The notes below the pieces were generated by a model that saw nothing but the letters and a program-made list of their open reading frames with translations, searched no databases and was not told the origin of the DNA. From NCBI RefSeq assembly GCF_001677475.2, contig NZ_CP012497.1: 64,000 nt of DNA; one strand, given 5' to 3'. Position 1 is the stretch's first letter. Every line of letters starts with the position of its first letter. This stretch comes from Escherichia coli (GTDB lineage Bacteria; Pseudomonadota; Gammaproteobacteria; Enterobacterales; Enterobacteriaceae). A program made the translations under genes and the position numbers. Below, piece after piece: positions 3,867 to 52,488 of this stretch.

Positions 3867-6800
3867 ATGGAAAGAAAAAACGCCAACATTGACGATGTTA
3901 TAAGGACAGTTGAAACCGCCAGCGCAAAAGAGCTGGAAGAGCTTGCTGGTATCCGGGAAGCTGTTGAAGATTTGAAAGGTGGGCGAGTTGCTACTGTTGA
4001 TCCTGTCTCTCGCAGCGTGTCGGCATTAAATCGCACAATCGAAAATTCCCGGCCTGACTTTGTGGCCAAAGCGCCATCAGTAGACCCTATTGTTGACGCA
4101 ATGAAACGGCTTAATTTAGGGGACGTTTCTCGTGTAGTTCAGGAAGATGTTGCTCAACAGGAACAGCGGGCCAAATCAACCACACCAAAGGGTAAAAAAC
4201 GACGCAGGAAGGCTATACCAGAGGATGTAAAGGCGCAACGGACCGAAGCAGCCGAACACGCTCGCGAAATGTTCGGTCAAAAAGGCGGTGCGCAAAAAAG
4301 CCAAAACCAACGCGATGCGCGTGGTCGTTTTATTGGAAAGTCAGGGAGTAAGGCCGCAGCGGAAGATGCCCATGCTGAACGAGCAGAAAAGGCCAGGCGA
4401 AAAGAGGATGATGAGCGTCTAAATGCTGAATCAGGTTTATTAAAAAAACTGTCAAAAGTAGCTGAAGGCATAGGTAACCCTTCAGAGACTCGTGCCGTCG
4501 ATGCGTTAGGTTATGCCGTTGCTGGTCCATTGTGGGCCGCAGGGAAGGAGCTTGGCGGGATATCAAAAGAAGTTGGCGGATCGCTTAATGGTGCCAGAAA
4601 GTCTATTGCCGATGTGATTCGTGGCAATGACGATAACAGCCGTAAAAAAGGTTTTTTTAGGCGTAAATCGCAAAGTAGTGCCGATGTCGTTCAGGTTAAC
4701 ACCCAAAAACGGACGGTTCAGGAACTTCAGGATCAGACCAGCGAAATTAAAGAGGGCAATGACAAGATTCTCAGCGCCCTTGATCAGATAGCCAAAAACA
4801 CCGGGAAAAAGAAGGGCGGCTTGCTGTCCAAATTATTTAGCCTGTTAGGGAAGGGGGCCGGTGGTATTGCTTCCCTCATTTTTGGCCGTGGGGCACTAAA
4901 GAAAGTTGGCTCGATGGCACTAGGCGCTTTAGGTATAAAAAAAGTTGCAAGCTTATTGGGCTTTGGTGGGAAAAAAGCTGCTGCCAAAGAAGCTGGCGAA
5001 TTGGCTACTCGCGGTGCCGGAAAACTTGCAACTAAGGGATTGGGGAAACTAGGTGTTAAGGCACTTGCAAAGGGGGTTTTACGCGCAATTCCGCTAGTCG
5101 GCACGGTGGCTGGAGGTATCTATGATGCGGTAACCGGTTGGAATGATACAGAAGCACAACGTCGGACCTTTGGGCTTAAGGATGGGGAAGATCCATCTTT
5201 TCAGCAAAAAGCGGCTTATACACTGGCTAACGTTCTCGATATGGGAGGACTGGTATCTGGTATTAGCAGTGCCATTGGTGGCGTTCTCAAATCACTTGGA
5301 TTTGAGGATATCGGCAATATGTTGCAATCATTTTCGACGGAAAGTATTGCACAGGCCATTGATAGTGGGATTACCAATTTAGAAACATACATTTCTAACC
5401 TTGGTGACACCATATCCACAACATTCAACGATTACACAGCCAAGATTGGCGATGCTATTTCAGCTTGGTTCAGTGACACAACCAAGAGTCTGAACGAAAA
5501 ATTAGACGCCATCAAAGACTTCTTTACTGTCGATAACCTGAAAAAGGTTTTCAGTGATGCAATTGATAGTGCAATTGATTTCATTAAGAACCCGGGGAAA
5601 TACATTAAAGAGGCTGGCAGTAATCTATGGAGTGCCGCAAAAGAGCTTTCAGGTGAGGTTGCTGATGCCGCTGTTCAGAGCACCCCTGTGGCCTGGGTTG
5701 CATCAAAGCTAGTCAATAAAGCGGATGCGAAAGAGGTTACACCTGAATTAAAAACACCTGCTAAAGAACGTCAGGAGGGCAATGCTCCTAAGACTGAATA
5801 TACCCCTAAAAAGGCTAATATTGTCACTCGTGTTGTAAATGCATCCTTAGATACGGCGAAAGATAGCAATAAAACAGTTAAAGAAACTGCTAATCAGATT
5901 ATCAATGCAAATGCCGTAGAAACGGGCAATCGCGCGTTGCAGAAAATTGATAAAGCCATTGGTCAAAATAGCTCGTCATCATCGTCGCGTAATACTACTG
6001 GAACCAGGAATGATATTCAGAAAGCTGCGGATACCTACAACAATGGCAACTTGGATGTAAAAGTAGGAAGTCTTGGCGCTGAAGGTAAGGCAAATCTCGA
6101 TAAGTTGGCTCCATATTTTGCTGAACTAGAGAATAAATATGGTCTTCCAGAAGGCACTCTTTACGCGATTGCTGCAACTGAATCAGGAGGGGATCCTAAC
6201 GCAAAGTCTCCGCTTACAAGATCACCAGATGGAAAGTTAAGTGGTGGCGCACTCGGGATGTTCCAGTTCACGAGTATTGCTCGTAAAGAGACAGGGATAT
6301 CGGAACCGGATGCATTTGATCCTGTGAAATCGGCAGAAGCTGCGGCTCTTCTCATGAGCAAGTATCTGAAGCAAGCCAATGGAGACTTAAACGAGGCCAT
6401 CACTGCATATAACGCTGGGTTTGGCACTATCAATAAGTGGAAAAAAGGCACAGGTGACTTATCGAAAGAAAACCGTGAGTACGCGATCAAGGTCAATACT
6501 CATCGTGCTCGCTATTTGGGTGGTGAAATCTATACACCTGGAGCAGGAGCACAGGGTGGGGCGCAATATGGAGTGAGGGGACCACTGCCTGATAACGCTG
6601 TTATCGATCAGTCTACTGGCCTGGCGTTTACCCCTGGTGATAGCCCGTTTGAGAAAGGCGGTCTGGTAGACAAAATCGGCAATGCTGTTGGCGTTAACGA
6701 TCTGGTCAACAAATTCATGAATGGCCGGGGGATGCGTCGGGAAGTCGTTCAGGGAACCCTCGAAGAACGTGCACGAGGAAGGGGAACCGCAACGGCAGCT

Positions 6801-7295
6801 GGCAATGTGTATGTTGATACACCTATGCCAGTTGAAGAGGCACGTCCGGTAGCAAACAACTCAAGTTACTTTGACCAACTCGGTGCACAAATGGGGATTG
6901 ATGGGCTGTATGACAAACTCATTAATGCCCGGGGAATGCGCTCAAATAATTCTCCTCAACCAGCCTCCACGTCCCAGGTGACGACTGCCGCCAACGATTT
7001 GCAGCAACCAACCGGTCGTATGCAGATAGACGGGCAGGTTATTAGTGACCTTGGCGGTTCCGGTGCTAAGCCGACAATGCAGTTGGCTGATAATACCGTT
7101 TCACTTGATGGTGAAACGAAGCGGCTGTTTGCGCAGATGACCTCATTGCTTGCCAGGATTGAAGAGCACACCAAAGACTCGGCGAAAGGCCAGGGAACTG
7201 TCGTAAAGGTCAGCACGCCTCAACCGGGCGTTATGCGCACGGTGCCACTGTCAATTGATGATCCGTTGATGAATGACTACGCGAGAGTTGATTGA
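3867..7295 (+). CDS. sit: Sit: tape-measure-like internal tail protein with lytic transglycosylase domain
   Basis: 1142 aa; Gly/Ala/Lys-rich repeats; SLT motifs LYAIAATESGGDPNAKS...GALGMFQF...AYNAGFG. Confidence 0.8.
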   Translation: MERKNANIDDVIRTVETASAKELEELAGIREAVEDLKGGRVATVDPVSRSVSALNRTIENSRPDFVAKAPSVDPIVDAMKRLNLGDVSRVVQEDVAQQEQRAKSTTPKGKKRRRKAIPEDVKAQRTEAAEHAREMFGQKGGAQKSQNQRDARGRFIGKSGSKAAAEDAHAERAEKARRKEDDERLNAESGLLKKLSKVAEGIGNPSETRAVDALGYAVAGPLWAAGKELGGISKEVGGSLNGARKSIADVIRGNDDNSRKKGFFRRKSQSSADVVQVNTQKRTVQELQDQTSEIKEGNDKILSALDQIAKNTGKKKGGLLSKLFSLLGKGAGGIASLIFGRGALKKVGSMALGALGIKKVASLLGFGGKKAAAKEAGELATRGAGKLATKGLGKLGVKALAKGVLRAIPLVGTVAGGIYDAVTGWNDTEAQRRTFGLKDGEDPSFQQKAAYTLANVLDMGGLVSGISSAIGGVLKSLGFEDIGNMLQSFSTESIAQAIDSGITNLETYISNLGDTISTTFNDYTAKIGDAISAWFSDTTKSLNEKLDAIKDFFTVDNLKKVFSDAIDSAIDFIKNPGKYIKEAGSNLWSAAKELSGEVADAAVQSTPVAWVASKLVNKADAKEVTPELKTPAKERQEGNAPKTEYTPKKANIVTRVVNASLDTAKDSNKTVKETANQIINANAVETGNRALQKIDKAIGQNSSSSSSRNTTGTRNDIQKAADTYNNGNLDVKVGSLGAEGKANLDKLAPYFAELENKYGLPEGTLYAIAATESGGDPNAKSPLTRSPDGKLSGGALGMFQFTSIARKETGISEPDAFDPVKSAEAAALLMSKYLKQANGDLNEAITAYNAGFGTINKWKKGTGDLSKENREYAIKVNTHRARYLGGEIYTPGAGAQGGAQYGVRGPLPDNAVIDQSTGLAFTPGDSPFEKGGLVDKIGNAVGVNDLVNKFMNGRGMRREVVQGTLEERARGRGTATAAGNVYVDTPMPVEEARPVANNSSYFDQLGAQMGIDGLYDKLINARGMRSNNSPQPASTSQVTTAANDLQQPTGRMQIDGQVISDLGGSGAKPTMQLADNTVSLDGETKRLFAQMTSLLARIEEHTKDSAKGQGTVVKVSTPQPGVMRTVPLSIDDPLMNDYARVD

Positions 7296-9995: not shown

Positions 9996-10430
9996 ATGTC
10001 TGACGTCTCAACAAACCTCTATAAGAGTCAGTTGTTGGACTATTACTATCAGCGGCGCGCTGAATCGTCCATTAACAAAGGCTCTCGATTTTTAATCAGC
10101 AAGGCCGTTTTCGGTACCAGTTCACTGGTTACTAAGAAAGGAGATGGCACTTATGAGATTGGAGAACTGCCAAAGGCTTTCGATCTGGCAGAACTGACCA
10201 GTCAATTTTGCACCATCAACCTCGTCCCAACCTACTCAGGCGGGATAATTACTGTCCGAATGGACCTTGATCAAAGCCAGTTGCAGGAAGGGAAAAACTA
10301 CCCATTCAACACTCTGGTTGTTCTGGATAACGAGAACAAGCCAATCGCCATTATTTGTGTCCAGGAAGACTCGCTGTATGTGGGCAAAACATATACCGCA
10401 GTTATGGCCATAAACACGACTACAGCATAA
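9996..10430 (+). CDS. Tail-fibre associated protein R-like
   Basis: 144 aa immediately upstream of the tail-fibre gene. Confidence 0.4.
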   Translation: MSDVSTNLYKSQLLDYYYQRRAESSINKGSRFLISKAVFGTSSLVTKKGDGTYEIGELPKAFDLAELTSQFCTINLVPTYSGGIITVRMDLDQSQLQEGKNYPFNTLVVLDNENKPIAIICVQEDSLYVGKTYTAVMAINTTTA

Positions 10431-10441
10431 GGATATGTTTG

Positions 10442-11908
10442 ATGAATGACGTTACAGTTGTCACATCGGTTACTTCCCCATCACCCGAGTCGTTGGCTCT
10501 GGTGGCTGATGTGCAATACCACGAACCATATCTGTCAGCCGCGCTAAACCGAAAATTCAGGGGGATTGTTGACCCGGGATTTTATGCCGGTTTCTTACCT
10601 AAGCCTGGCGGTGGGATGAACCTGTTAATCACCTCAGTGGATGGTGATAAAACCGCAGGCGCGGCGTCGGTGGATATTGGTGAATTCTACCAGGTAACTA
10701 TTCAGCACCGTAAGGATATTTCTCTTGCACTTAGTGCAGGCAAGAAATATGCAATTGTGCTGAAGGGAAGATACCTCCTTGGAGAGGATACCTATCAGGT
10801 TAATACCGCGTCACATATTCATGCGGCTGAATTTGTTGCCAGAACCTATACCGATTCATATCAGTTAGGAGATGGGGAGCTGCTTGTTTGTACGGTGAAT
10901 ATCCCTGCTGGCGTATCAGCCATTACCCAGGAGATGATTGATACATCCGAGCGTATTAACCGCACGATCGGCATTGATATTTCAGACTCTGTAACCAGTA
11001 GTAGAAGTGATGTTGCTGCAAGTTCGCTGGCAGTTAAAAAAGCCTACGATCTGGCAAAAAGCAAGTATACGGCGCAGGATGCAAGCACAACGCAAAAGGG
11101 ATTAGTTCAGCTCAGTAGCGAAACTAACAGCGACAGCGAAACAATGGCGGCGACCCCTAAAGCCGTTAAGTCTGTAAAGGATCTGGCTGATACCAAAGCG
11201 CCAATAGAAAGCCCGAGTCTGACAGGAACGCCAACCGCGCCGACGGCAGCGCAAGGTACAAACAGCACGCAGATCGCAAATACAGCCTTTGTTAAGGCAG
11301 CTATAACTGCACTTATCAACGGTGCGCCTGGCACACTGGATACGCTGAAAGAAATAGCGGCTGCGATCAATAACGACCCGAATTTCAGCACAACTATCAA
11401 CAATGCCCTGGCTCTCAAAGCGCCTTTGGCAAGCCCTGCATTAACGGGTGTCCCTACTGCGCCGACCGCCGCACAGGGCACAAATAATACGCAGATTGCT
11501 ACGACCGCTTATGTAAGAGCTGCCATATCCGCACTGGTTGGTTCATCACCAGAAGCTCTTGATACCCTGAATGAGCTTGCCGCAGCACTTGGCAATGACC
11601 CGAACTTTGCGACAACAATGACAAATGCGCTGGCAGGCAAACAGCCTCTGGATGCAACTTTAACCGCTCTCGCGGCCCTTGCGACTGGTGCAAACAAACT
11701 GCCTTATTTTACTGGTAAGGATACGGTAGCTCAGACTGATTTAACGTCAGTCGGTCGCGATATTCTGGCTAAAACAAGCACACTGGCCGTTATCCAATAC
11801 CTTGGTTTAAGAGAACTCGGTACCAGCGGTGAAAAGATCCCCCTGTTGAGTACGGCTAACACATGGAGTGCGCGCCAGACTTTCAACGGCGGGATCACCG
11901 GGCGCTGA
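10442..11908 (+). CDS. S: Tail fibre S, constant part plus start of inverted repeat; ends at an apparent frameshift
   Basis: Repeated fibre motifs (SPSLTGTPTAPTAAQGTNSTQIANTAFV / SPALTGVPTAPTAAQGTNNTQIATTAYV); in-frame stop at 11906-11908 is created by a 1-nt difference from the right-hand repeat copy. Confidence 0.75.
   Translation: MNDVTVVTSVTSPSPESLALVADVQYHEPYLSAALNRKFRGIVDPGFYAGFLPKPGGGMNLLITSVDGDKTAGAASVDIGEFYQVTIQHRKDISLALSAGKKYAIVLKGRYLLGEDTYQVNTASHIHAAEFVARTYTDSYQLGDGELLVCTVNIPAGVSAITQEMIDTSERINRTIGIDISDSVTSSRSDVAASSLAVKKAYDLAKSKYTAQDASTTQKGLVQLSSETNSDSETMAATPKAVKSVKDLADTKAPIESPSLTGTPTAPTAAQGTNSTQIANTAFVKAAITALINGAPGTLDTLKEIAAAINNDPNFSTTINNALALKAPLASPALTGVPTAPTAAQGTNNTQIATTAYVRAAISALVGSSPEALDTLNELAAALGNDPNFATTMTNALAGKQPLDATLTALAALATGANKLPYFTGKDTVAQTDLTSVGRDILAKTSTLAVIQYLGLRELGTSGEKIPLLSTANTWSARQTFNGGITGR
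11790..11815. other. cixL-like recombination site (TTATCCAATACC TT GGTTTAAGAGAA)
   Basis: 26-bp site resembling hix/gix/cix crossover sites, at the outer edge of the left inverted repeat. Confidence 0.6.
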
Positions 11909-12416
11909 CAGGGAACGCCGACACCGCGACGAAATTAAAAACAGCCATAAATATTAATGGCGTCAGGTTCGATGGTTCTACGACATTTCGATACCAACAA
12001 TTACGTCTAGAGGACGCGTTACTGCGCTTACCGGTACAACGCAAGGTGCTGCTACTGGATTGCAGATGTATGAGGCATACAACAATGGTTATCCGACGAC
12101 TTACGGGAATGTACTTCACCTGAAGGGAGCTGCATCAACTGGTGAAGGCGAGTTGCTCATTGGCTGGAGTGGCACAAATGGCGCTCATGCACCTGCTTTC
12201 ATTCGATCCAAAAGAGATAGCACTGCTGCGGCATGGTCCGAATGGGCACAGATCTATACGTCAAAAGACTCCGTTCCCGGCGTTAATGCCAAAGGGAATC
12301 AGGACACCTCTGGTAATGCGGCTACAGCGACCAAATTGCAGACAGCACGTACTATTAACGGTGTCTCGTTTGATGGTTCTAAAAACATTGAGCTAACGGC
12401 GGAAGATTTAAATCTT
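11816..12416. repeat. Left inverted repeat of C-segment (coding, imperfect)
   Basis: Reverse-complement match to 15485-16083; outer about 180 bp nearly identical, inner part diverged. Confidence 0.65.
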
Positions 12417-13025
12417 GAGCAAACCGTAGAATTAGCCGTAGGAGCATTACAGAAAAACCAGAACGGCGCGGATATTCCAGGAAAAGATACCTTCACCAAA
12501 AATATTGGTGCATGTCGCGCTTTTCACAGTGCTATTAGTACAGGGGCAGGTAACTGGACAACAGCACAATTGATTGAATGGCTGGATTCTCAAGGGGCAT
12601 TCAATCACCCATACTGGATGTGCAAATGTTCATGGTCATACGGCAATAATAAAATTATTACCGATACTGGCTGTGGAACTATTCATCTTGCAGGTTGCGT
12701 TATTGAGGTTATGGGTAATAAAGGTGCCATGACCATCCGTGTAACAACACCAAGCACTTCCAGCGGTGGCGGAACTACTAATGCACAATTTACTTATATA
12801 AACCACGGTGGAGATTATGCGCCAGGCTGGCGGCGTGACTACAACACGAAAAATCAGCAACCTGCATTTGCTTTAGGGCAAACAGGAAGCACTGTCGGAA
12901 ATGATAAAGCTGTTGGCTGGAACTGGAATAGCGGGGTCTATAACGCAATCATTGGTGGCGCATCGACATTAATCCTCCACTTCAATATGAATACGGGAGC
13001 TGCCCTGCTGTACAGTTCCGCGTGA
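12060..13025 (+). CDS. Tail-fibre variable part Sv (frame-shifted relative to the constant part)
   Basis: Encodes ...[25 protein letters not shown]...[52 protein letters not shown] then a unique C-terminus. Confidence 0.6.
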
Positions 13026-13360
13026 ATTACAGGAACGGTGGTATTTTTTATCGTTCAGCGCGTGATGGTTACGGATTCGAAGCTGACTGGTCAGAATTTT
13101 ACACCACAACACGCAAGCCATCAGCAGGAGATGTTGGTGCATATACGCAGGCAGAATGTAACTCAAGGTTTATTACAGGTATTCGCCTTGGCGGTCTGTC
13201 ATCTGTTCAGACATGGAATGGTCCCGGCTGGTCTGACAGGTCAGGTTATGTCGTTACGGGTTCAGTTAACGGAAACCGTGATGAATTAATTGATACAACT
13301 CAGGCAAGGCCAATTCAGTATTGCATTAATGGAACGTGGTATAACGCGGGGAGTATTTAA
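13022..13360 (+). CDS. Tail-fibre distal tip segment (separate frame; probably the frameshifted end of S)
   Basis: 112 aa ending ...[12 protein letters not shown]; homologous to the minus-strand 14454-14966 product ending ...[11 protein letters not shown]. Confidence 0.4.
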
Positions 13361-13362
13361 TT

Positions 13363-13896
13363 ATGATGCACTTAAAAAATATTACTGCTGGCAACCCTAA
13401 AACAAAAGAGCAATACCAGCTAACGAAACAATTTAACATCAAATGGCTTTATACAGAGGATGGGAAAAACTGGTATGAGGAACAAAAGAACTTTCAGCCT
13501 GATACGTTGAAAATGGTCTATGACCACAACAACGTTATTATTTGTATTGAAAAGGATGTTTCAGCAATTAATCCAGAAGGCGCAAGCGTCGTTGAGGTTC
13601 CTGATATTACAGCAAATCGCCGGGCTGATATTTCGGGTAAATGGATGTTCAAAGATGGCGTAGTGATAAAGCGAACTTATACCGAGGAGGAACAGAGGCA
13701 GCAGGCAGAGAATGAAAAGCAAAGCCTGTTGCAACTTGTCAGGGATAAAACCCAGCTATGGGACTCACAGCTACGGCTGGGCATCCTTTCCGACGAGAAT
13801 AAACAAAAATTAACCGAGTGGATGCTCTATGCGCAGAAAGTCGAATCTACAGACACCTCCAGCCTGCCAGTAACATTTCCCGAACAACCTGAATGA
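13363..13896 (+). CDS. U: Tail-fibre assembly chaperone U
   Basis: 177 aa, [20 protein letters not shown]...[16 protein letters not shown], Tfa/U family; paralogue of the inverted copy. Confidence 0.75.
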
Positions 13897-13924
13897 GACA
13901 AGGCCCGATAGCGGGCCTTAATTT

Positions 13925-14452
13925 TTATTCAGGCTTTTGTGGCCATTCAGGATTTGCCGTATCCACACGGCTGACCAGAACACTGTAGCGTTCCCATGCT
14001 TCCAGTCGTGTGCGTTCCTCGTCTGTTGCCATATTCAGCCTGACAGCGCGTTCCAGCGGCTGAATGACTGATTCAGCTTCGGAAAGCAATGCGGCCTTTT
14101 GTGATTCGGCTTGTTGTTGCTGTTCGTCTGCCGTATAAATCCGTTTAACTACAGCTCCATCCTTAAACATCCACTTTCCTGAATCATCAGCGCGGCGGTT
14201 GGCTGTTATATCGGGAACCTCAACGACGCTAAAACCTTCAGGGTTAAGCGTGGAGGCATCTTTAGTGATGGCGACAATAATATTATTTGCATCGTAAACA
14301 ATCTTTATTGTGTCTGGCTGAAAGTTTTTCACTTCCTCATACCAGTTTTTTCCGTCCTCAGAGTAAAGCCAGATAACTCCGTGTTTCTTTGTTAACTCAT
14401 ACTGTTCCAGTGTTTTAGCGTTACCCGCTTTTATGTTCTTTAAGTGCATCAT
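13925..14452 (-). CDS. Tail-fibre assembly chaperone U' (alternative orientation)
   Basis: 175 aa, [20 protein letters not shown]...; mirror arrangement to U. Confidence 0.75.
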
Positions 14453-14453
14453 A

Positions 14454-14966
14454 TTAAACGCTCGCTACATTATACCAGGTGCCATTTATATACTTTTGAA
14501 CGGGTCTGTAATAAACGCCAGCTATATTATCGGCAGAGTTGGACCCTGTATCCTGAACATTAATACCAGACAATACATGACCTGACGGGCACTGGAAATT
14601 CCATGTTTGCCAGTTGTTCACTCCATAATATTGCTGTGAACCAAGTCGAACATCTTTCACATATCTGGAATCAAAATTGCCATAGTTGCCGGGAATAACT
14701 TGCGCACCGCAAAGCCAGTTTCCGTTATTATCCATGTACGCCTGACCATCGGTGCCATTGGCTGTCCTTGAATTATTAATCATGTAAAAACCAAACTGGT
14801 AGTTACCAAGTCCACCGACAAAAAATTTGCGTTCTGCATGGTCTTGTCTTAACAAAGCCTGCGCAGAACTTGTTGATACTGCGTTTCTACCAAAAATGAC
14901 ATTCTGGTTTCGCATATCAATCCATGAGGTTGAGCCACTATTAATAGCAAACCTGTTTGCATACAC
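14454..14966 (-). CDS. Alternative tail-fibre distal tip segment
   Basis: 170 aa ending ...[12 protein letters not shown]; the frame stays open upstream to about 15040. Confidence 0.5.
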
Positions 14967-14980
14967 CCAGGCGTTAGTTG

Positions 14981-15790
14981 TTATATCTCCTGTAACATCC
15001 AGACCATGCCCATGCTTATCCGACCAGTTCTGAGATTAAGCGTAAAGGGGCGTAGTGGCCCTATATCACCATTTTCTCCCTCATTCTCTCGTGTAGGGAT
15101 GATATGCAGGCATTCTTCAGAGCGACGAAAAATAGCACCAAAAGATGAATTAAATATCCTCAGTGCATTGACTGTCGATATTTTTACTTCACTGCTGAAA
15201 AGGGCTTTAACAAGGACAGACAAAGCATCCCATTTAAGATTCATCAGGTCTTTTGTTGTGGTGCTCTGGCGGCTTCTCCATTTGAAATATTCATTTCCGT
15301 TGTCGCCTGTTTCAAACCACATGTATGAATCAGTATCGCTGTCGGCATCATTTTTAAATCCAATCTTTGCCCAGTCAGTATTTCGAATCCAGGCAAGGAT
15401 TGAGTCATTTTCAAAAGTAAGCCCGCCGGACAAGATATCGCCTGAACGCTGAACGGCATTATTTGCTTTATTAATGAATTCCTGTAGATTTAAATCTTCC
15501 GCCGTTAACTCAATGTTTTTAGAACCATCAAACGAGACACCGTTAATAGTACATGCTGTCTGCAATTTAGTCGCTGTAGCCGCATTACCAGAGGTGTCCT
15601 GATTCCCTTTGGCATTAACGCCGGGAACGGAATCTTTTGACGTATAGACCTGCGCCCATTCAGACCAGTTAGCAGAATCAGTATCCCGCCGCGAACGGAT
15701 ATGTACGGGCGCATGGTCACCACTCGTGCCACTCCAGCCAATGAATAACTCACCTTCGCCAGCAGCGGTGGCACCTTTAAGGTGAAGCAC
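14981..15790 (-). CDS. Alternative tail-fibre variable part Sv'
   Basis: Shares ...HLKGATAAGEGELFIGWSGT...[29 protein letters not shown] with Sv, then diverges; the C-terminal 60 aa look out of frame. Confidence 0.6.
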   Translation of the reverse strand: MLHLKGATAAGEGELFIGWSGTSGDHAPVHIRSRRDTDSANWSEWAQVYTSKDSVPGVNAKGNQDTSGNAATATKLQTACTINGVSFDGSKNIELTAEDLNLQEFINKANNAVQRSGDILSGGLTFENDSILAWIRNTDWAKIGFKNDADSDTDSYMWFETGDNGNEYFKWRSRQSTTTKDLMNLKWDALSVLVKALFSSEVKISTVNALRIFNSSFGAIFRRSEECLHIIPTRENEGENGDIGPLRPFTLNLRTGRISMGMVWMLQEI

Positions 15791-16083
15791 ATTGCCATAG
15801 GGGGAAGGGTAGCCATTGTTGTATGCCTCATACAGCTGAATCCCGGATGTCCCCTGTGCATTCGCCCCAGAGCCGTTACGCGACCACGCGATACCATAGT
15901 ATTGATATTAATGTCACCAGAACCATCGAACCTGACGCCATTAATGTTTCTGGCTGTTTTCAATTTCGTTGCGGTATCGGCGTTCCCTGTCAGCGCTCCG
16001 GTGATCCCGCCGTTGAAAGTCTGGCGCGCACTCCATGTGTTAGCCGTGCTCAACAGGGGGATCTTTTCACCGCTGGTACCGAG
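15485..16083. repeat. Right inverted repeat of C-segment
   Basis: Reverse-complement match to 11816-12416. Confidence 0.65.
15505..16053 (-). pseudogene. S segment encoded in the right inverted repeat, in a different frame from Sv'
   Basis: Begins [44 protein letters not shown], same as the end of the S constant region; after ...RVTALG the fibre reading ([20 protein letters not shown]) continues only in another frame. Confidence 0.4.
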
Positions 16084-16111
16084 TTCTCTTAAACCAAGGT
16101 TTAGGATTGAA
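16084..16111. other. cixR-like recombination site
   Basis: TTCTCTTAAACCAAGGTTTAGGATTGAA; its inner half is the reverse complement of the inner half of the left site. Confidence 0.55.
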
Positions 16112-16661
16112 ATGATGACGCAGGAAACTTTTTATAAAGCGTGGAAACAGCAACATCATAGATGATTGCAACCTGCTTACGGGGGATGCCATTCTCCAGC
16201 AATCGACGCATTTGCTGCCATGTTTCTTCTTGGTATTTAGGCCGACGGCCTCCTATTCGACCTTCTGCGCGAGCTGCATCAAGTCCAGCGCGTGTACGTT
16301 CAACGATAAGCTCGCGTTCCATTTCAGCCAGCGCCCCCATTACGTGAAAGAAAAAACGCCCCATTGGTGTACTGGTGTCGATAGAGTCAGTGAGACTCCG
16401 GAAATTAATTCCTCTGTCACGCAGCTCTTCCACCAGCACAACCAAGTGACGCATGCTGCGCCCAAGACGATCTAACTTCCATACGACCAGGGTGTCACCT
16501 CTGGAAAGCATACGCAAAACCTTTTTTAGCCCAGGGCGTTCAGTCTTTTTGCCGCTCGCCTTATCCTCAAAAATTAGCTCACATCCTGCGCTTTCAAGGG
16601 CATTTCGTTGCAAAGCAGTGTTTTGTTCATTTGTTGATACGCGTACATAGCCGATCAGCAT
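16101..16661 (-). CDS. cin: Cin/Pin/Gin-family serine DNA invertase
   Basis: 186 aa, MLIGYVRVSTNEQNTALQRNA...LVVWKLDRLGRSMRHLVVLVEELRDRGINFRSLTDSIDTSTPMGRFFFHVMGALAEMERELIVERT; near-identical over long stretches to Pin/Cin. Confidence 0.9.
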   Translation of the reverse strand: MLIGYVRVSTNEQNTALQRNALESAGCELIFEDKASGKKTERPGLKKVLRMLSRGDTLVVWKLDRLGRSMRHLVVLVEELRDRGINFRSLTDSIDTSTPMGRFFFHVMGALAEMERELIVERTRAGLDAARAEGRIGGRRPKYQEETWQQMRRLLENGIPRKQVAIIYDVAVSTLYKKFPASSFQS

Positions 16662-18487: not shown

Positions 18488-20101
18488 ATGGAACAGTTAA
18501 ATATCAATAAAGGGGTGACGATCAAGCCTGGGCTTGACGTGCTTCCCCCGCCAGTGACTGATGATGAATATCGCGCATTAATGGCCGGTGAGGACCGCTA
18601 TCTGATGACGGAATCCAACACCCTGGAGGAAATCGAGGCTACGTTCTTCTATGACACGCCGATCCACTGGTGTGCTACGGATTTACTGGAGGCGATTAGT
18701 TCTACTCGTTTGCAGTTACACCGGACCATGCAGGCATTTGTCCGGGCATTGAACCAGAAGCTGAATGGTACCGGAATCTCTGCGGGGAGTGATAAAACGG
18801 GGGAGGTGGCCCAGAGCGGCGCGCGCGCGATCGGCGGTGCTGAAATTGGCCGGGCACGTAACGTTAACGGGCTGCCGGTCCTGCCAGCCATTATTCCGCT
18901 CAGTGATGGTCAGACTATCAGCATTCTGTTTCATAGCCCGACAGCGGAAAACCGGATCACCAATAGCGATACGCTGGTTGCTTTCCAGTTCTTACTGAAT
19001 AAAAAAGACGTTACTCACACCGTTGCTCCGATGAGTGGACGTGATATGACGCTGGCGCAGGTCACCATGAAACTTGCCAACCTTGCAGAGAAAAACTCGG
19101 CAAAATTCCAGCGTGCGCAGAAGAAGAAAAAAGCCCTGGTTGATGAAATAACCCAACTACAGGCTGACAGTGACCAGAAAGAGGATGCCATGAGCGACCT
19201 CGCGGATCAGGTGGCAGCGGTAGAAGGGCAGAAGGTAGATCTGGAGCAGAAAATTAACGCTGTTGCATCGGAAGCGGATTCTCTTTATGAAGAGAATGAG
19301 CGTTTGCAGACGGAGATTGATCAGCTCAATCGCACAGGTGGGCGCGATACCATTGATCCAGCGGGGATGACTGGTGGGCACTCGCGCGCGCTGACGGATC
19401 GCCTTGCCAGTATCAAAAATCGTATGCATATGAACGGGGAAGTGACGCTCAGTAATGGAGCATCAATGAAGCAATTCATTGAGGACGGCGAAGGGTATAT
19501 CCAGTTAACCGATTCGGATGGCAGCGTGTACATGATCAAGGCTAAATCCATACAGGGTGTGGACATGGCAGATGCGATCGGCAAGCTGTTTAAAGCCTAT
19601 AAAGCGGGTAATGTATCGGAATACCTGGTCCAACCAGAAGAACATAAACCGGAAAACGTCGAACCTGAACCAGCGGAGGATACCGGTAGCTCTTCGCCTG
19701 AACCAGAAGTCTCTGTAGGTGCATATCGATATGCCCTGCAAATGCGTCCGGCGGCCCCTGGCGCAATACCTGAAGGTAACAAAGCAATTCTGCCGCGCCC
19801 TGATGAAGGTGACCCGTATTATGAATATGCACGCTACGGCATTGCTACTTACGATACCCCGCTTTCTGATCAGCAAATGAGTGAGTACGACCTGAAGTTA
19901 TTGCCTCGCGAGGATTCTTTCGACTTCCTGGCGAAGACACTTACTAATGGTCCGTTTGGCAAATATGCACAAAAAGCTCTGGAGCTGGCCACCAGCTCAC
20001 CAGACGAGTTCCGCGTAATGCTGAAAACTCAGTTTCAAAAAACTTTCCCCAATATTGCGTTTCCGGGGGCGCTGGCACCGAGAAAATGGTGCAGAGCATG
20101 A
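18488..20101 (+). CDS. darA: DarA-like antirestriction protein
   Basis: 537 aa; segment LANLAEKNSAKFQRAQKKKKAL is paralogous to Hdf; coiled-coil region. Confidence 0.5.
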   Translation: MEQLNINKGVTIKPGLDVLPPPVTDDEYRALMAGEDRYLMTESNTLEEIEATFFYDTPIHWCATDLLEAISSTRLQLHRTMQAFVRALNQKLNGTGISAGSDKTGEVAQSGARAIGGAEIGRARNVNGLPVLPAIIPLSDGQTISILFHSPTAENRITNSDTLVAFQFLLNKKDVTHTVAPMSGRDMTLAQVTMKLANLAEKNSAKFQRAQKKKKALVDEITQLQADSDQKEDAMSDLADQVAAVEGQKVDLEQKINAVASEADSLYEENERLQTEIDQLNRTGGRDTIDPAGMTGGHSRALTDRLASIKNRMHMNGEVTLSNGASMKQFIEDGEGYIQLTDSDGSVYMIKAKSIQGVDMADAIGKLFKAYKAGNVSEYLVQPEEHKPENVEPEPAEDTGSSSPEPEVSVGAYRYALQMRPAAPGAIPEGNKAILPRPDEGDPYYEYARYGIATYDTPLSDQQMSEYDLKLLPREDSFDFLAKTLTNGPFGKYAQKALELATSSPDEFRVMLKTQFQKTFPNIAFPGALAPRKWCRA

Positions 20102-20406
20102 TCAATGCATTGCAGGCCGAAGTCGGTGAGATTACTCAGCCAGAACCTGCCCCGGCACAGCCTGATGAAACGGTTAGCGAAGCAGATGCAGAGGCTAATA
20201 AAGCCATTGAATATCTCAATAACGTGATGGATATGCAAAGCACTGACATGGCGGAGATCCGTAACGCCCGGGGTAATGTCCGGGAAGCGATTGCAGCCCT
20301 TCAGGCTGCCGGGCGTTTTGAGGAAAACGAAGAGCTGGTTAATGGCGCTGCTCGCCACCTGGCTGATCTGCTGGTAGCAATCCAGAAAGCGGGGGTAGCG
20401 GCATGA
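20086..20406 (+). CDS. Small acidic protein (ddrA region)
   Basis: 106 aa ORF overlapping the darA-like stop. Confidence 0.3.
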   Translation: MVQSMINALQAEVGEITQPEPAPAQPDETVSEADAEANKAIEYLNNVMDMQSTDMAEIRNARGNVREAIAALQAAGRFEENEELVNGAARHLADLLVAIQKAGVAA

Positions 20407-20780: not shown

Positions 20781-22997
20781 ATGAGCTTAAGCGATCAGGT
20801 GGTAATTGCCACCAGCATAGAAACGCTGATCGAGCTGCTTAAGAACCTGCCCGATTATGGGCGGGTTTCGTATGTGGTGACAGCGAAGGGAGACGAGGTA
20901 AAAACAGCGTTTGATATCGTCGATGCCTCAGCTCTTTTGGTATCCAATACTCTGGATGGGAAAATTAATCCTGACTATCCCCAGGAACTTCAGCCGCGCG
21001 ACCGGACCCGCGCATCCAGCCTTCTTCAGGTTAACCAGATATCCAAAGATTTGCGGCCTGCTCAGCTTACCGATTCCGGTTTATCCAGCCATGGCGCGCC
21101 GATAATTGGTGAGGACAATGCCGTTGAGTCAGGTAATGGACGGACCATGGGAATCATTAAAGCCTATCAGGACGGCAATGCGGATCGGTATCGTGAGTAC
21201 CTGATTGAACATGCGACCGAATTCGGCATACGACCTGAAAAGGTTGAATCAATGACGGCTCCTGTATTGGTGCGCCGCCGGTTAACTAAGGTTGACCGCG
21301 TTCAGTTTGCCAAGGACTCAAATATTTCTGATCTTCAGGAAATGGCAGCCAGTGAAAAGGCTTTTGTTGATGCCGACAGCATAACACCGGCGATGATGGC
21401 GCTGTTTAATCCGTCAGAAAGCGGAGATCTGCTTAGCCGCAGTAATGACGCGTTTATTCGCGGATTCATGACGCAAGTTGGTGCCACACAGGCTGCTGGC
21501 CTTGTAACGGAAGATGGGCGACCAACGCGGCAACTTGTTGACCGTATACAAAACGCGATCTTTGCCAAGGCATATAAGGATGCGCGCCTGGTAAGGATGG
21601 TTGCAGAAGAACCTGATCCGGATATGCGTAATGTTCTGACGGCGCTTAATGCGGCAGCCAATGATTTTGTCCAGATGCAGGCTTTATCAGGAGAAGCGCA
21701 CAAGCAGGCTGTGACAACTATTGTTGATGGCATTGAGACAGCGGATAGCCTCGATAAAAAGGCGCTGGCGGCATTGAAAGATGCGGTAGACCTGGTAAGG
21801 CAATCGAAGGAGTCAGGCCAGCATATTACCGATGTTATTGCTCAGGGGGATATGTTCAGCGAAACGGCCCCGGAAGTGAAAGCACTCGCGTTGTTCATCG
21901 TCGCGAATAACCGTAGCGCGAAGCGTATGGCCACCGCCTTTAAGTTGATGGCTCAACGTATCAATGATGAGTTACAGCACCAGGGCCAGGCGCTGGGGGA
22001 TATGTTTGGCGGCGGCGATGTGTCGTTACAGGATATCCTTCGCCAGGTGTCTCAGGAACTGGAAAACGAAGGCATGCAAGGGATATCCGGCGGTCTTTTC
22101 GAGTCCGTTTCCGGCGGTAGTTACAACGGTGTTGCTCCATATACCAGCTTGCTATTACATCGGGCATCCGGCATCAAAGACATTATTCATCTGATCAGGC
22201 TGCTTTCCCGTACAGATCCCCAGGATGAACAGCTTGTACAAGTGCTTGCGCATTTTGTTCGAATGCCTGTTGCCGACGTGAATAAATGGTGCCGATTATT
22301 CGGTATCAGCAATTCGTTACTTCGCGGATTGTTAAATCACGCATCCTCCCTTGGGCGCGACGGCTTTGATGAGATAGCGCAGGCGATACAAAACGGAGAT
22401 ATGCCACCAGCTATTGACTGGTTTTCCATTCGCCCAACCAGGGTGAAAGCATTCCTTAGCGCGGCGCATTCGGCATCACCATTGGCAGAAATGGTTCAGA
22501 GGTTGTCGCTCATATTCACAGACCATACCGCGTTGGGTGATCTGACTCTGGACGAGATGAAAGAAGCCTCCATTCAGTGGGCCGATCAACAAAATGAGGT
22601 TAACTCAGACTTCTTGCCAGCATTCAGGAAGGCCGTTAGTAAAGCGGATGATTCCCGTGGAATTCTGAAGGCATTTAAGGCATTGCAAAGTCGGGTTAAT
22701 AAACATGTCGGTGATATCGATGGGGTAACGGCGGAAGGCAGGGATATTCTTAAAGAGCACGGCATAACGCCAGAGTTTATTGATGAGATCAGGACGGATA
22801 TGCAGCGTGAGGTCGTATCGTCCCTGCAAATTGTAGCCAGAGCGTTGGCGGATGCTAATCCGAAGAGTGCGGCCATTGTTAACCGGGTTATTGGTGATAT
22901 TGAAGCATCGGAGGGCATGGGGGCGCTGAAACTCTTCCTTTCGCGAGCGTTTAATCCTAACGGCAATATTCTCCCTGGCATTATTGGTGAGGTATGA
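20781..22997 (+). pseudogene. ddrB: ddrB-like gene, 5' part, interrupted by IS insertion
   Basis: 738 codons ending ...ILPGIIGEV followed by a stop inside the IS; the reading frame resumes exactly after the IS. Confidence 0.55.
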
Positions 22998-23085
22998 GAC
23001 GACAATAACTCAGTCCGCCTGGCGCCGATTATTCTGGCCGGTTTTGTAACCTGAGTGTCATTTACATGATCCAACAGGAAATGGC

Positions 23086-24585
23086 GTGACGCTCAATACT
23101 TCTCAGGTCAGTTACTATATGACTCAGCGTAAGAAAGGTATAACTCAGCATATCTCGGCCATGAAGGCTGGTATCTCAGTCCGTTCTGGTCGTCGGATCG
23201 AAAAAGGAGAGTGGGCAAAAAACAGTGTTCGGCACTGGCGCACACGCAAAGATCCTCTGGAAGCTGTGTGGGACAGCATGCTTGTTCCTCTGTTGAAAGA
23301 GAGGCCGGCTCTGACACCAACAACTCTACTGGAGATGCTACAGGATAAATATCCCGGCCAGTACCCCAACAGCCTTCGAAGAACAATGCAACGGCGGGTT
23401 CGCGAATGGAAACTACAGTATGGTACAGAGCAGGAGGTCATGTTCCGCCAGCAACATCAGCCCGGCCTGCGAGGCCTGTCGGACTTTACTGAACTGAAAG
23501 GTGTAGTTGTCACCATCGCCGGTAAGTTGTTGGCGCATAAGTTGTATCACTTCCGTCTGGAATGGAGCCACTGGAGCTGGATGCGGGTTGTTCTGGGTGG
23601 TGAGAGCTTCTCTGCTCTGGCTGAAGGCCTGCAGGAAGCCCTCGGACAACTGGGCGGAGTGCCGGTAGAACATAAAACGGACAGCCTGAGGGCAGCATGG
23701 AAACAACAGGGCGAAGATGGACGCCGCGAGCTGACTGAGCGTTATGCTACTCTCTGTCAGCACTACGGAATGCAGGGCGTACACAATAATGCCGGTCGGG
23801 GCCACGAAAATGGCTCGGTTGAAAGTGCCCACGGACATCTGAAAAGGCGTATCTGTCAGGCGCTGATACTGCGGGGCAGTAACGACTTCAGCACCATAGA
23901 AGAATATCAGGCCTTCATCACTCAGCAGGTTATGCGGCACAACCGTAACAATCAGGATCTGGTCAAGGAAGAACGTCTTCATCTGAAACCGCTGCCGCTT
24001 CGTCGCAGTGCTGACTATGATGAGCTGACTGTGAGGGTTAGTCGCAGCAGTACCATCAATGTGAAGCACGTCGTCTACAGCGTACCTTCCCGGCTTGTAG
24101 GTCAACTGTTACGGGTCAGGTTATGGGACGATCGTCTGAGCTGTTACGTTGGCAGCAGCGAGGTCATGAGCTGCCCTCGCGTCAGACCAGAAAAAGGGAA
24201 GACGCGGGCCCGTCGTATCGACTTCCGACATGTGATCGACAGTCTGGCAAAAAAGCCCGGTGCGTTCTGCCATGCAACGCTGAGAAATGACATCCTGCCG
24301 GACGATGAATGGCGGAGGCTGTGGCGTCGCTTATGTAATCATCTGGAGCCCGATATGGCAGGAAGGCTGATGGTACATGCCCTGAAACTGGCTGCAGGAT
24401 ACGACGATATCTCAGTCGTGGCAAAAGGTATGGAGCAGATGCTGAATACCCCGGGAAACGTGGATCTGCACCGGCTGATGCGCTTCCTGGGTATAAAAGA
24501 AAAGGCGTTGCCGGTAGTCAATGTGATACAGCATAACCTGAGCAGTTATGAGCAACTACTGCGTGGCAAGGGAGGTTCGCAGTGA
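23086..24585 (+). CDS. istA: IS21-family transposase IstA
   Basis: 499 aa; N-terminal HTH and integrase-core-like region; followed by overlapping istB. Confidence 0.85.
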   Translation: MTLNTSQVSYYMTQRKKGITQHISAMKAGISVRSGRRIEKGEWAKNSVRHWRTRKDPLEAVWDSMLVPLLKERPALTPTTLLEMLQDKYPGQYPNSLRRTMQRRVREWKLQYGTEQEVMFRQQHQPGLRGLSDFTELKGVVVTIAGKLLAHKLYHFRLEWSHWSWMRVVLGGESFSALAEGLQEALGQLGGVPVEHKTDSLRAAWKQQGEDGRRELTERYATLCQHYGMQGVHNNAGRGHENGSVESAHGHLKRRICQALILRGSNDFSTIEEYQAFITQQVMRHNRNNQDLVKEERLHLKPLPLRRSADYDELTVRVSRSSTINVKHVVYSVPSRLVGQLLRVRLWDDRLSCYVGSSEVMSCPRVRPEKGKTRARRIDFRHVIDSLAKKPGAFCHATLRNDILPDDEWRRLWRRLCNHLEPDMAGRLMVHALKLAAGYDDISVVAKGMEQMLNTPGNVDLHRLMRFLGIKEKALPVVNVIQHNLSSYEQLLRGKGGSQ

Positions 24586-25337
24586 GCAATATCCATCACC
24601 TTGAACATAGCCTGCGTAAACTACGCCTGACACGAGTTGGAGCTGAATGGCACGCTCTGGAAAAACGAGCGCTGGCAGAAGGCTGGACACCATCGCGCTA
24701 TCTTCTGACGCTATGCAATGAAGAACTCCTGTGGCGCGAGAGTGAAAAACTGCGTCGTTATAAAAAGGAGGCCCGGTTGCCAGTTGCCAAAACGCTGAGC
24801 GAATACGACTTCAGTCAGGTGCCGGAACTGAATGGAGCTCAGTTCCGGCAACTCTGTGAAACGACAGACTGGGTTGATGCAGGAGAAAACGTTCTGCTGT
24901 TCGGAGCCAGCGGGTTGGGGAAAAGCCATCTGGCGGCAGCGATCGTGGATGGCGTAGTAGGTCAGGGCTACCGGGCCCGGTTCTACAGCGCAGGAGAGCT
25001 GTTGCAGGAACTACGTAAAGCCAGAGCTCAGTTGAAACTGAATGAGCTGCTACTGAAACTGGATCGCTACCGGGTGATAGTGGTGGATGATCTTGGCTAT
25101 GTCAAACGCGATAGTGCCGAAACGGGTGTGCTGTTCGAGTTAATAGCGCATCGCTATGAACGTGGGAGCCTGGTGATAACCAGTAACCATCCGTTCAGCA
25201 TGTGGGGCAGCATCTTCGTGGATGAGACTATGGCGGTGGCTGCGGCAGACAGGCTGATCCATCACGGATATATGTTCGAACTGAAAGGGGAAAGCTACAG
25301 GAAAAAGACAGCGAAGGCAGTAACAAGCGCGACTTGA
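24582..25337 (+). CDS. istB: IS21-family ATP-binding helper IstB
   Basis: 251 aa; Walker A GASGLGKSHLAAA and Walker B VIVVDDLGY. Confidence 0.85.
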   Translation: MSNIHHLEHSLRKLRLTRVGAEWHALEKRALAEGWTPSRYLLTLCNEELLWRESEKLRRYKKEARLPVAKTLSEYDFSQVPELNGAQFRQLCETTDWVDAGENVLLFGASGLGKSHLAAAIVDGVVGQGYRARFYSAGELLQELRKARAQLKLNELLLKLDRYRVIVVDDLGYVKRDSAETGVLFELIAHRYERGSLVITSNHPFSMWGSIFVDETMAVAAADRLIHHGYMFELKGESYRKKTAKAVTSAT

Positions 25338-25389
25338 TGTCGCCCTGAAGGGTGCGGCCAGTATAGTTGGCGCGAGTCGGCAAAACTAG

Positions 25390-26184
25390 TTGACGTCTAA
25401 TAGTGAGGCTAAAAAGTATGTCAGTGAAGAAGAACTTGAGCAGCTTGACCAACTACTTAAGCGATTCTCATATAACCCGCAGACACGCTGGCAAATGAAT
25501 CAGCGAAGTATGGGTTCGGTCCACGAGAAAGTGTTATCTGCCATGAACAGTGCGATCGCAAACTCATCCGTATCTGAAGAAAAAGCTCTTGAGTGGGCCG
25601 ACTCTTTTATCACAGAAGAAGTGGAAGAAGCCCGCGCTGGACAGAATGGTGGGATAGACCTGCGCAAGGAACTTGCTGATATTTATCGCCTGACCGGCGG
25701 GAAAATATCGACCTTATCAAAGGTAGTTCACCACCAGGGAAGGGCATATGCAAATCTAAATGGTGTTGTTGCTGTCAATTTGAACGATGAAAATGCAAGT
25801 GCACTGTGGCACGAGCTGGGTCATCATCTTGAGTACAGTAACCCTGGTTTGTTAGAGAAAGCCCGGTCATTCCTGAAGGCCAATGTTGAAGGGGATAAGC
25901 CATCTTTCGTCAATATCGGTGGGCGTGGCAAGCCTGAATGGTGCTTCAGATCTCGATTGAGTAATATTTATATGGCGAAGGTATACCCGCCAGCCTCAGT
26001 AAGTAACACCGGGAAAATTCGGCAGAAATCACCGACTATTTCCAAAACGTCAGCAACGGAAGTATTCTCTATGGCTCTTCAGTTGTATCATGACAAAGAG
26101 GCCGCTGCCGCATCACTGATGAATGGTGACGGATTGCTGGAACTGTTATTAGGTGTGGCAAAGGAGCTAAATAATGCAGATTAA
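25390..26184 (+). pseudogene. ddrB: ddrB-like gene, 3' part
   Basis: Frame continues from the upstream part once the IS and one copy of GTGAGG are removed (...GIIGE|AKKYVSEEELEQ...). Confidence 0.5.
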
Positions 26185-52150: not shown

Positions 52151-52159
52151 AATGGCAGC

Positions 52160-52468: not shown

Positions 52469-52469
52469 C

Positions 52470-52486
52470 AATTTATTAGAGCAAAT
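52470..52486. promoter_or_regulatory. C1 operator variant upstream of the icd-ant region
   Basis: Reverse complement ATTTGCTCTAATAAATT. Confidence 0.45.
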
Positions 52487-52488
52487 AT

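Follow-up and report, generated by a model that had tools for sequence, protein, structure and literature searches.

The stretch 10442-13360 of the window (the whole 64,000-nt piece of DNA that was analyzed) is, as judged from alignment with its relatives, a single tail-fiber gene S of the P1/P7 type, in which three single-nucleotide deletions break the reading frame. Two more deletions of the same kind break Sv', the alternative C-terminal part of the gene, and all five fall within the invertible C-segment at 11803-16097. The five deletions are probably residual homopolymer-length errors of the deposited consensus, a technical cause to which the pattern of the lesions points. An earlier note on this DNA had posed real decay of the fiber and consensus error as alternatives; the sequence comparison favors consensus error, because every deletion lies within the C-segment and is a homopolymer contraction private to this sequence, and because no other lesions accompany them.

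Layout of the invertible tail-fiber locus

The locus is the standard tail-fiber host-range switch of P1/P7-type phage-plasmids and as such an already known system. Its genes are arranged in the order R, S (Sc plus Sv), U, U', Sv', and cin, collinear with the annotated loci of P7 and RCS47, and encode the Pfam domains Phage_fiber_2, Caudo_TAP (twice), and Resolvase plus HTH_7. The features of the locus are:

9996-10430, plus strand: R, tail-fiber structure/assembly gene 5' of S; ORF collinear with P7 gene R
10442-11802, plus strand: Sc, constant N-terminal part of S; intact and in frame
11790-11815: cixR recombination site; crossover between 11802 and 11803
11803-16097: invertible C-segment between the cix sites, containing Sv, U, U', and Sv'
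11803-13360, plus strand: Sv, variable C-terminal part of S in the present orientation; in three frames through deletions 1-3
13363-13896, plus strand: U, tail-fiber assembly chaperone; intact, 177 aa, Caudo_TAP E=1e-36
13925-14452, minus strand: U', alternative chaperone; intact, 175 aa, Caudo_TAP E=9e-38
14454-16097, minus strand: Sv', alternative C-terminal part of S; in three frame segments
16085-16110: cixL recombination site; crossover between 16097 and 16098
16101-16661, minus strand: cin, serine DNA invertase; intact, 186 aa, Pfam Resolvase plus HTH_7, collinear with P7 cin

The position of cixR was carried over through alignment from the annotation of P7, in which Sc extends to the cixR crossover, and that of cixL is based on alignment to the P7 right arm together with the P7 cixL annotation. 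Both sites contain the common core AACCTTGGTTTAAGAGAA, located at 11798-11815 and, inverted, at 16085-16102. Alignment of the repeat arms to those of P7 places the cix sites in inverted orientation at the Sc/Sv junction and beside cin. A repeat search of the window showed that inverted repeat I3 begins at 11792; the two arms (11792-12422 and 15479-16107) are 83-97% complementary and lie just within the segment ends. Zero frameshifting gaps were found when Sc was aligned to S of P7, RCS47, and E. fergusonii. Once repaired, Sv' is open when entered from the cixL side, and with this arrangement of the repeats Sv and Sv' are both continuations of the frame of Sc. The invertase gene cin is intact and both cix sites are in place; Cin is predicted to invert the 4.3-kb segment, which would join Sc either to Sv or to Sv'.

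The nearest known systems are those of P7 and RCS47 (Punavirus; AF503408 and FO818745), in which the gene order and the cix positions are as in the window; DNA identity across the locus is 93-95%. In the window, Sc and the left repeat arm are of the P7 type, whereas the Sv' of about 550 codons is of the longer type found in EC02, the P7 type having 449 codons. S is continuous with 976 codons in P7 and RCS47, while S of the window requires three inserted bases. Plasmid p3 of E. coli EC02 (NZ_JBXRYZ010000004.1), a P1-like phage-plasmid, is 99-100% identical over the right repeat arm and most of Sv', identical over 200 nt at the Sv end around deletion 3, and collinear in its backbone at about 97%. 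EC02 is intact where the window is broken, namely in S (974 codons), Sv' (550 codons), and darA, and its repeat arms are nearly alike, in contrast to the only 83-97% likeness of the arms in the window. The G-segment/Gin system of Mu and other Din-family switches are likewise invertible, with two fiber ends and two chaperones, and over positions 12441-15444 the window shares about 90% identity with G-segment genes of Mu, D108, and SfMu; unlike Mu, the element is of the P1 type in its constant part and in the remainder of its genome. Irregular loci also occur among annotated records: S is split in the records of pE2863-2 and of the 2015C-3108 plasmid, the latter with an IS beside a truncated cin, the cin gene of RCS47 is split, and U of P7 is annotated as Ua/Ub.

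Single-base deletions in S and Sv'

The earlier note had described S as four segments in frames 1, 0, 2, and 1, equivalent to one ORF of about 970 codons with three 1-nt deletions. The four segments agree with the ORF list, and alignment to S of P7 (976 codons), RCS47 (976 codons), and E. fergusonii pRHB23-C01_3 (974 codons) yields exactly three gaps of 1 nt. An additional difference of 6 nt is in frame and common to the window and one relative; intact S homologs have 974-976 codons. Alignment of the two arms also bore out the comparison of the first two deletions with the right inverted-repeat copy, and the two shifts that had been noticed on the Sv' side correspond to one missing C at each of two sites relative to Sv' of plasmid p3 of E. 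coli EC02, which is intact with 550 codons. The frame segments of S and the coding lesions, including the one in darA outside the segment, are:

10355/10442-11908, 11863-12123, 12060-13025, and 13022-13360, plus strand: S frame segments according to the ORF list
11900-11902, plus strand: deletion 1; GGG, with GGGG in left-type relatives and GGAG in the right repeat copy
11983, plus strand: deletion 2; AA to A, giving GAC, with GAAC in relatives
12995-12997, plus strand: deletion 3; GGG, with GGGG or TGGG in relatives
15009-15011, minus strand: deletion 4 (Sv'); CCCC to CCC on the plus strand, coding strand GGG, with four in relatives
15865-15868, minus strand: deletion 5 (Sv'); CCCCC to CCCC on the plus strand
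20065-20069, plus strand: 1-nt deletion in darA; GGGGG, with GGGGGG in EC02 and AGGGGG in P7

After deletion 1, the S frame ends at the TGA at 11906-11908 (codon 489). On the minus strand, Sv' is represented by the ORFs 14454-14966, 14981-15790, and 15505-16053. A continuous S frame of about 975 codons is absent from the sequence as written and is obtained when one base is inserted at each of three sites: restoring the three bases leads to a clean S of 973 codons, restoring two leads to a clean Sv' of 552 codons, and zero other lesions are left. All six coding lesions, darA included, are losses of one base where the same base is repeated 2-6 times. Five are in G/C runs of 4-6, and insertions, nonsense codons, and larger indels are absent among the six.

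The short alleles of the five deletions are absent from 5,426 complete E. coli genomes, IMG/VR, and metagenomes, and also from all of the 16-83 local relatives aligned per site. Every reference spanning the respective site is one base longer at deletion 1 (83/83 local alignments), deletion 2 (16/16), deletion 4 (30/30), and deletion 5 (29/29). The short allele of deletion 1 was found in 0 of 64 IMG/VR matches, and that of deletion 3 in 0 of 21 IMG/VR, 0 of 12 metagenome, and 0 of 386 E. coli records. The region comprising deletions 1 and 2 is matched by 250 E. coli records, and every best one is 2 nt longer across both sites. Deletions 3 and 5 are each flanked on both sides by 100 nt that match the intact EC02 sequence exactly. 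A near-identical haplotype of the locus was found in none of INPHARED, PLSDB, the 5,426 E. coli genomes, IMG/VR, JGI metagenomes, and GTDB representatives, where the best match over the whole locus has about 95-96% identity. A search of the literature did not find a paper on frameshifted S genes in P1-like plasmids.

Clustering of the frameshifts and state of the other genes

Five of the six coding frameshifts are located in the 4.3-kb C-segment, which makes up 9% of the 48.8 kb compared (binomial P about 3e-5). G/C runs of 4 or more are contracted at 3 of 15 sites inside the segment versus 1 of 147 outside (Fisher P=0.0025); in Sv and Sv', 4 of 13 such runs are contracted when each site is scored against the best-matching type, and U contains zero of them. 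Contraction affects 4 of 9 G-runs and 0 of 4 C-runs on the coding strand, numbers too small to mean anything, and no consistent Dam/Dcm motif was found at the lesion sites, with CCWGG present only in the P7 version of the darA site. Three of the five deletions sit in the inverted-repeat arms, where deletion 1 falls on a column at which the arms disagree (GGGG versus GGAG) and deletion 2 is directly beside several clustered differences between the arms. Compared with 83 reference loci, the C-segment has 5 private substitutions versus 5 private 1-nt deletions, while Sc has 3 private substitutions and cin has none, with indels in neither. Spontaneous mutation in E. coli produces roughly ten substitutions per small indel.

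The earlier note had also regarded the other long genes as intact, which holds for sit (3867-7295) and darB (33529-40296) and fails for darA, which is split, and for ddrB, which is interrupted by an IS. The IS21-family insertion in ddrB is flanked by a 6-bp target duplication and is undoubtedly a real lesion; the element is therefore not pristine. The gene darA is split into 18488-20101 and 20086-20406 by the only coding frameshift found in the remaining 44 kb or so that were compared. Its short allele was found in 0 of 458 matching E. coli records; 201 records match the site with at least 99% identity, and all among the matches listed span 202 nt versus 201 nt in the query. Being located outside the segment, the darA deletion needs a separate explanation. 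Indels in the mat region (45994-46003) were considered as a seventh frameshift and omitted as ambiguous; they precede the start codon given in the EC02 annotation, and P7 and EC02 also differ from each other by 1 nt in this region.

Explanations for the deletions

Homopolymer-length errors would persist only in the invertible segment because this segment would be hard to polish. Possible obstacles are the diverged inverted repeats and a DNA population that may be mixed in orientation, and similar tail-fiber cassettes in other prophages, present in about a third of E. coli genomes, would cause ambiguous read mapping. Matches to the C-segment are found in 1,719 of the 5,426 E. coli genomes, with 2,038 chromosomal places. 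At five errors per 4.3 kb, the accuracy would be about 99.9%, which is typical of an unpolished long-read consensus. According to the Polypolish paper (PMC8812927), homopolymer-length errors are the commonest residual error in long-read bacterial assemblies and outlast short-read polishing in repeats, and the errors described there are single-base run-length errors at places where reads map ambiguously. All six lesions are alike in this respect, as each is a single-base length change in a run and private to one assembly, and the repeated, invertible region holds five of the six. Against a technical cause, mixed orientation by itself is not expected to disturb the consensus at deletions 3 and 4, which are located in the unique part of the segment; cross-mapping of reads from paralogs as the cause at these two sites is a conjecture.

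Alternatively, the frameshifts could be real and recent, both fiber ends having been lost via replication slippage in short G/C runs, which we consider rather unlikely. The element would then encode a truncated S consisting of Sc and about 35 residues up to the stop at 11906-11908, adsorption would be lost, and it would survive as a plasmid. The sequence as given is indeed frameshifted in S and Sv', the same element carries the genuine IS in ddrB and the split darA, S or cin is split or interrupted by an IS in other P1-like plasmids of complete genomes, and short one-base runs are natural hot spots of slippage. However, one hit is enough to kill each fiber end, and five hits within the 3.2 kb of Sv and Sv' would imply a long neutral period. 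Uniform neutral decay of a dead phage is expected to leave lesions across all late genes, yet the 44 kb or so of other phage genes contain one frameshift and the repaired frames contain no nonsense codons. No more than 5 private substitutions were counted in the segment, two of the deletions have flanks that match an intact relative without a difference, and the short alleles are common to no related sequence, so that no carrier lineage has been sampled. The signs of a decayed pseudogene are thus missing, as the repaired frames are clean, 4.3 kb contain 5 private substitutions, and the lesions are unshared; a pseudogene of very recent origin may be compatible with this. That both receptor-binding ends were really lost by G-run slippage confined to the segment, with about 44 kb left almost untouched, appears very unlikely; if true, it would indicate either raised local slippage tied to invertible quasi-palindromic DNA or selection for fiber loss that keeps the virion genes.

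Clustering would also be accounted for if the segment, or large parts of it, had been recombined in from a long-decayed cryptic-prophage cassette and had brought several frameshifts at once. Homologous cassettes are common on E. coli chromosomes, and the segment is a mosaic without a single close relative, composed of 31 exact-match pieces, and along the whole of it no record exceeds about 95-96% identity. Against this stands that the short alleles have no chromosomal or plasmid donor in the 5,426 complete E. coli genomes, IMG/VR, and metagenomes, that a long-decayed donor should import nonsense codons and many private substitutions, neither of which is seen, and that the mosaicism is ordinary, since the EC02 segment requires 43 pieces. 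Import from a prophage cassette is therefore largely refuted and, in our estimation, extremely improbable. The same piece counts, obtained by greedy exact-match painting with 90+ reference loci (31 versus 43 in EC02), led to an artificial blend of two templates being dropped as a candidate. Expression of the segments on purpose, as separate genes or through programmed ribosomal frameshifting, would find a possible start codon in each frame segment, but its probability is close to negligible. In 39 of the 39 closest plasmid homologs in PLSDB, S is one continuous frame, and the segments are thus not the separate genes in relatives that the earlier note had allowed for. The frame changes are conserved in 0 of the 16-83 relatives per site, every spanning relative having the extra base, and the out-of-frame stretches align base for base to the in-frame sequence of relatives. 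For three +1 recoding events within a single gene, at sites that are not conserved, we know of no precedent.

Invertible tail-fiber segments can form local islands of poor consensus within otherwise clean assemblies, and frameshifts in such segments should therefore not be called decay without a check of the reads. In either orientation of the segment, the element as written would be annotated as fiber-less and non-infectious. Real deletions would make it another defective P1-like plasmid, which is a common thing; if they are errors, as we favor, the element probably is a P1-like phage-plasmid that is competent and has an ordinary host-range switch with two states.

Layout of the tail-fibre locus

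A P1/P7-like phage-plasmid (Punavirus) makes up the window, which is oriented opposite to phage P7 (AF503408): its plus strand matches the P7 minus strand. Between 9900 and 16800, P7 and RCS47 match with about 95% identity over 93% of the length. The gene layout was derived from collinearity with the annotated loci of P7 and RCS47 together with domain searches, and the positions of the cix sites were carried across from the P7 annotation via an alignment of both repeat arms. The crossovers at 11802/11803 and 16097/16098 thus delimit the Cin-invertible C-segment at 11803-16097.

Features of the tail-fibre locus
9996-10430, tail-fibre gene R
10442-13360, tail-fibre gene S, with Phage_fiber_2 repeats
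11792-12422 and 15479-16107, inverted repeats at the ends of the C-segment
11802/11803, cixR crossover (P7 annotation and arm alignment)
13363-13896, U, Caudo_TAP chaperone
13925-14452, minus strand, U', Caudo_TAP chaperone
14454-16097, minus strand, Sv', the alternative C-terminal end of S
16097/16098, cixL crossover (P7 annotation and arm alignment)
16101-16661, minus strand, cin, 186 aa, with Resolvase and HTH_7 domains

In its architecture, which contains nothing new, the locus is a textbook example of the C-segment/Cin system of P1 and P7, which is related to Mu G/Gin. All defining features of this system that were examined are present, except for the continuous S frame, which is obtained in the window only after three single-base repairs. 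The inverted-repeat arms are 97% and 94% alike in the first ~190 nt and 83% further on, whereas those of the P1-like plasmid p3 of E. coli EC02 (hereafter EC02) hardly differ from each other. The left arm is of the P7 type and the right arm of the EC02 type, indicating that the two differ in origin. Recombination has made the tail-fibre locus a mosaic on a fine scale, and it has no single close relative. An artificial blend of two templates is unsupported, exact-match painting requiring 31 pieces for the window versus 43 for EC02.

Single-base deletions and their distribution

An earlier note had described S as one ORF broken into four segments by three 1-nt losses. The ORF list reproduces these segments and their frames exactly, and the reading as one broken ORF is right: when 10442-13360 is aligned with the uninterrupted S of P7 (976 codons), RCS47 (976), and E. 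fergusonii pRHB23-C01_3 (974), the window lacks one base at each of three sites and otherwise shows no difference that would alter the frame. The two shifts that had been noticed on the Sv' side correspond to two single-base losses relative to the intact 550-codon Sv' of EC02.

Single-base deletions in the C-segment
11900-11902, deletion 1, in S: GGG; relatives GGGG or GGAG
11983, deletion 2, in S: single A; relatives GAAC
12995-12997, deletion 3, in S: GGG; relatives GGGG or TGGG
15009-15011, deletion 4, in Sv': CCC; four C in relatives
15865-15868, deletion 5, in Sv': CCCC; five C in relatives

As written, S ends at a TGA stop at 11906-11908 and encodes 488 residues, consisting of the constant part Sc and about 35 further residues. 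Restoring the three bases leads to a clean S of 973 codons, and restoring the two bases in Sv' to a clean frame of 552 codons; no nonsense codons or further lesions were found in either repaired frame. The repaired S protein shares 97.1% identity with two plasmid S genes, and around deletions 3 and 5 the window agrees with EC02 at every position for 100 nt in either direction.

Indels were listed for the window against the complete P7 and EC02 sequences, with 48.8 kb compared. Outside the C-segment, the only frame-breaking gene change is located in darA (18488-20406), which a single-base loss in a G-run (GGGGG at 20065-20069; six G in EC02, AGGGGG in P7) divides into 18488-20101 and 20086-20406. 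The remaining indels there are multiples of three, intergenic, or, where sit is divergent, offset by another indel a few bases away. Five of the six coding frameshifts therefore lie inside the 4.3-kb C-segment (binomial P ~3e-5). In the EC02 alignment, G/C runs of at least 4 are shortened in 3 of 15 cases inside the segment versus 1 of 147 outside (Fisher P=0.0025), and the variable parts Sv and Sv' together have 4 of 13 runs shortened when each site is scored against its best-matching type. The intactness of U and U' is uninformative because neither has a G/C run of at least 4. The earlier statement that other long genes are intact holds for sit (1142 codons), darB (2255 codons), cin, pacA, pacB, and the remaining long genes, but it passed over the split darA and the ddrB gene interrupted by an IS element.

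The surroundings of deletion 1 (11896-11907) and of the darA deletion (20060-20074) have the context CC-G(n)-CGCTG in common. Of the six G{3,}CGCTG sites in the window, four had runs of at least 4, and two of these four are shortened; with such small numbers, this context could hint at a context-specific base-calling error.

Short queries spanning each site were run against 5,426 complete E. coli genomes and matched 250 (deletions 1 and 2), 386 (deletion 3), 872 (deletions 4 and 5), and 458 records (darA), the last without any short darA allele. No record in these genomes reached 100% identity to a query. Compared with the queries, the best full-length matches contain 2 extra nt across deletions 1 and 2, 1 extra nt at deletion 3 and at the darA site, and 1-2 extra nt across deletions 4 and 5. 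In pattern scans that accepted both allele lengths, IMG/VR contained only the long allele (64/64 for deletion 1, 21/21 for deletion 3), as did all 12 metagenome matches for deletion 3; a scan of GTDB representatives gave zero matches. All site-spanning alignments among more than 90 collected loci (83, 16, 50, 30, and 29 for deletions 1-5) carry at least one extra base. The closest 39 PLSDB S genes (full length, at least 89% protein identity) are each a single piece by tblastn, which speaks against the segments being independent genes in relatives, a possibility raised earlier. Since the relatives' frames are continuous, the frame changes are not conserved and the segments are not separate genes there, programmed frameshifting is ruled out.

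Origin of the deletions

A genome-wide technical error is rejected because the other 147 runs would be affected too, and neutral decay of a fibre-less phage because the same would apply to other late genes. As both uniform processes fail, a C-segment-specific cause is needed. Private substitutions, defined as window bases absent from all 83 reference loci, amount to 3 each in Sc and Sv, 1 each in U/U' and Sv', and 0 in cin. Private substitutions and private 1-nt deletions are thus equally numerous in the C-segment (five each), while Sc and cin on its flanks together show three substitutions and zero indels. In E. coli mutation-accumulation work, substitutions outnumber small indels roughly tenfold; a ratio of 1:1 with exclusively -1 events is unlike neutral decay.

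The deletions probably result from a local consensus or polishing failure at the invertible segment; of the two causes proposed earlier, the evidence favors consensus error specific to this region over real decay. The repeat arms contain three of the five deletions. Deletion 1 coincides with a column in which the arms differ (GGGG vs GGAG) and deletion 2 adjoins a four-column cluster of arm differences, a placement that is suggestive only, with a chance probability of a few per cent. Five errors per 4.3 kb equal an accuracy of ~99.9%, which is typical for unpolished long-read consensus; elsewhere the window is far cleaner. Reads of the opposite orientation could align into arms that are 83-97% alike, and a mixture of C-segment orientations may disturb consensus and polishing. 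Polishing might also be disturbed by homologous tail-fibre cassettes elsewhere, which occur in 1,719 of 5,426 E. coli genomes and are mostly chromosomal. Homopolymer-length errors are described in PMC8812927 as the commonest residual error in long-read bacterial assemblies and as surviving short-read polishing where alignment is ambiguous.

A real, recent inactivation of the tail fibre is rather unlikely, although the same element carries a genuine lesion, the IS21-family insertion in ddrB, and further deposited P1-like elements have lesions at this locus. Two of them, the 2015C-3108 plasmid and pE2863-2 (between them records NZ_CP027309.1 and NZ_AP018804.1), each have a split S; in the 2015C-3108 plasmid, S has C4 where a relative has C5, and IS1203 adjoins a truncated cin. 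RCS47 has a cin annotated as two parts, and P7 a U annotated as Ua/Ub. Arguments against such an inactivation are that the frameshifts cluster in the C-segment, that the frames are clean once repaired, that private substitutions are almost absent, and that no lineage shares the short alleles. The clustering would also be accounted for if a cassette had already decayed in a cryptic prophage before being imported, but this is highly improbable: a donor with these alleles occurs in none of the searched collections, and the cassette is free of other decay.

Further features of the element

The IS21-family element lies inside ddrB ('prt' in P7 naming) and is a genuine disruption within the anti-restriction dar operon. 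It is flanked by a 6-bp target duplication (GTGAGG), and its terminal inverted repeats are imperfect.

Features elsewhere in the window
20781-22997 and 25403-26184, ddrB remnants
22993-25402, IS21-family element
23086-24585, IstA-like protein, 499 aa
24582-25337, IstB, 251 aa
28390-29118, minus strand, 242-aa protein with a C-terminal Tad2-like (Thoeris anti-defence 2) domain
41605-44859, minus strand, 1084-aa autotransporter with Autotransporter beta-domain and AC_1 autochaperone
50817-52492, minus strand, immunity region

At 45994-46003, upstream of or at the mat start, the window has C5,A5, P7 C5,A6, and EC02 C4,A6; the coding status of these run differences depends on the true mat start codon. 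The autotransporter occupies the place of the res/mod type III restriction genes of P1 and P7 and looks like a cargo replacement. The stretch encoding the Tad2-like protein is unalignable with P7 or EC02. The immunity region is likewise unlike P7 and EC02 and encodes a 383-aa Ant-type antirepressor (ORF6N and KilAC domains), which is preceded by an overlapping 187-aa ORF matching phage transcriptional-regulator families.
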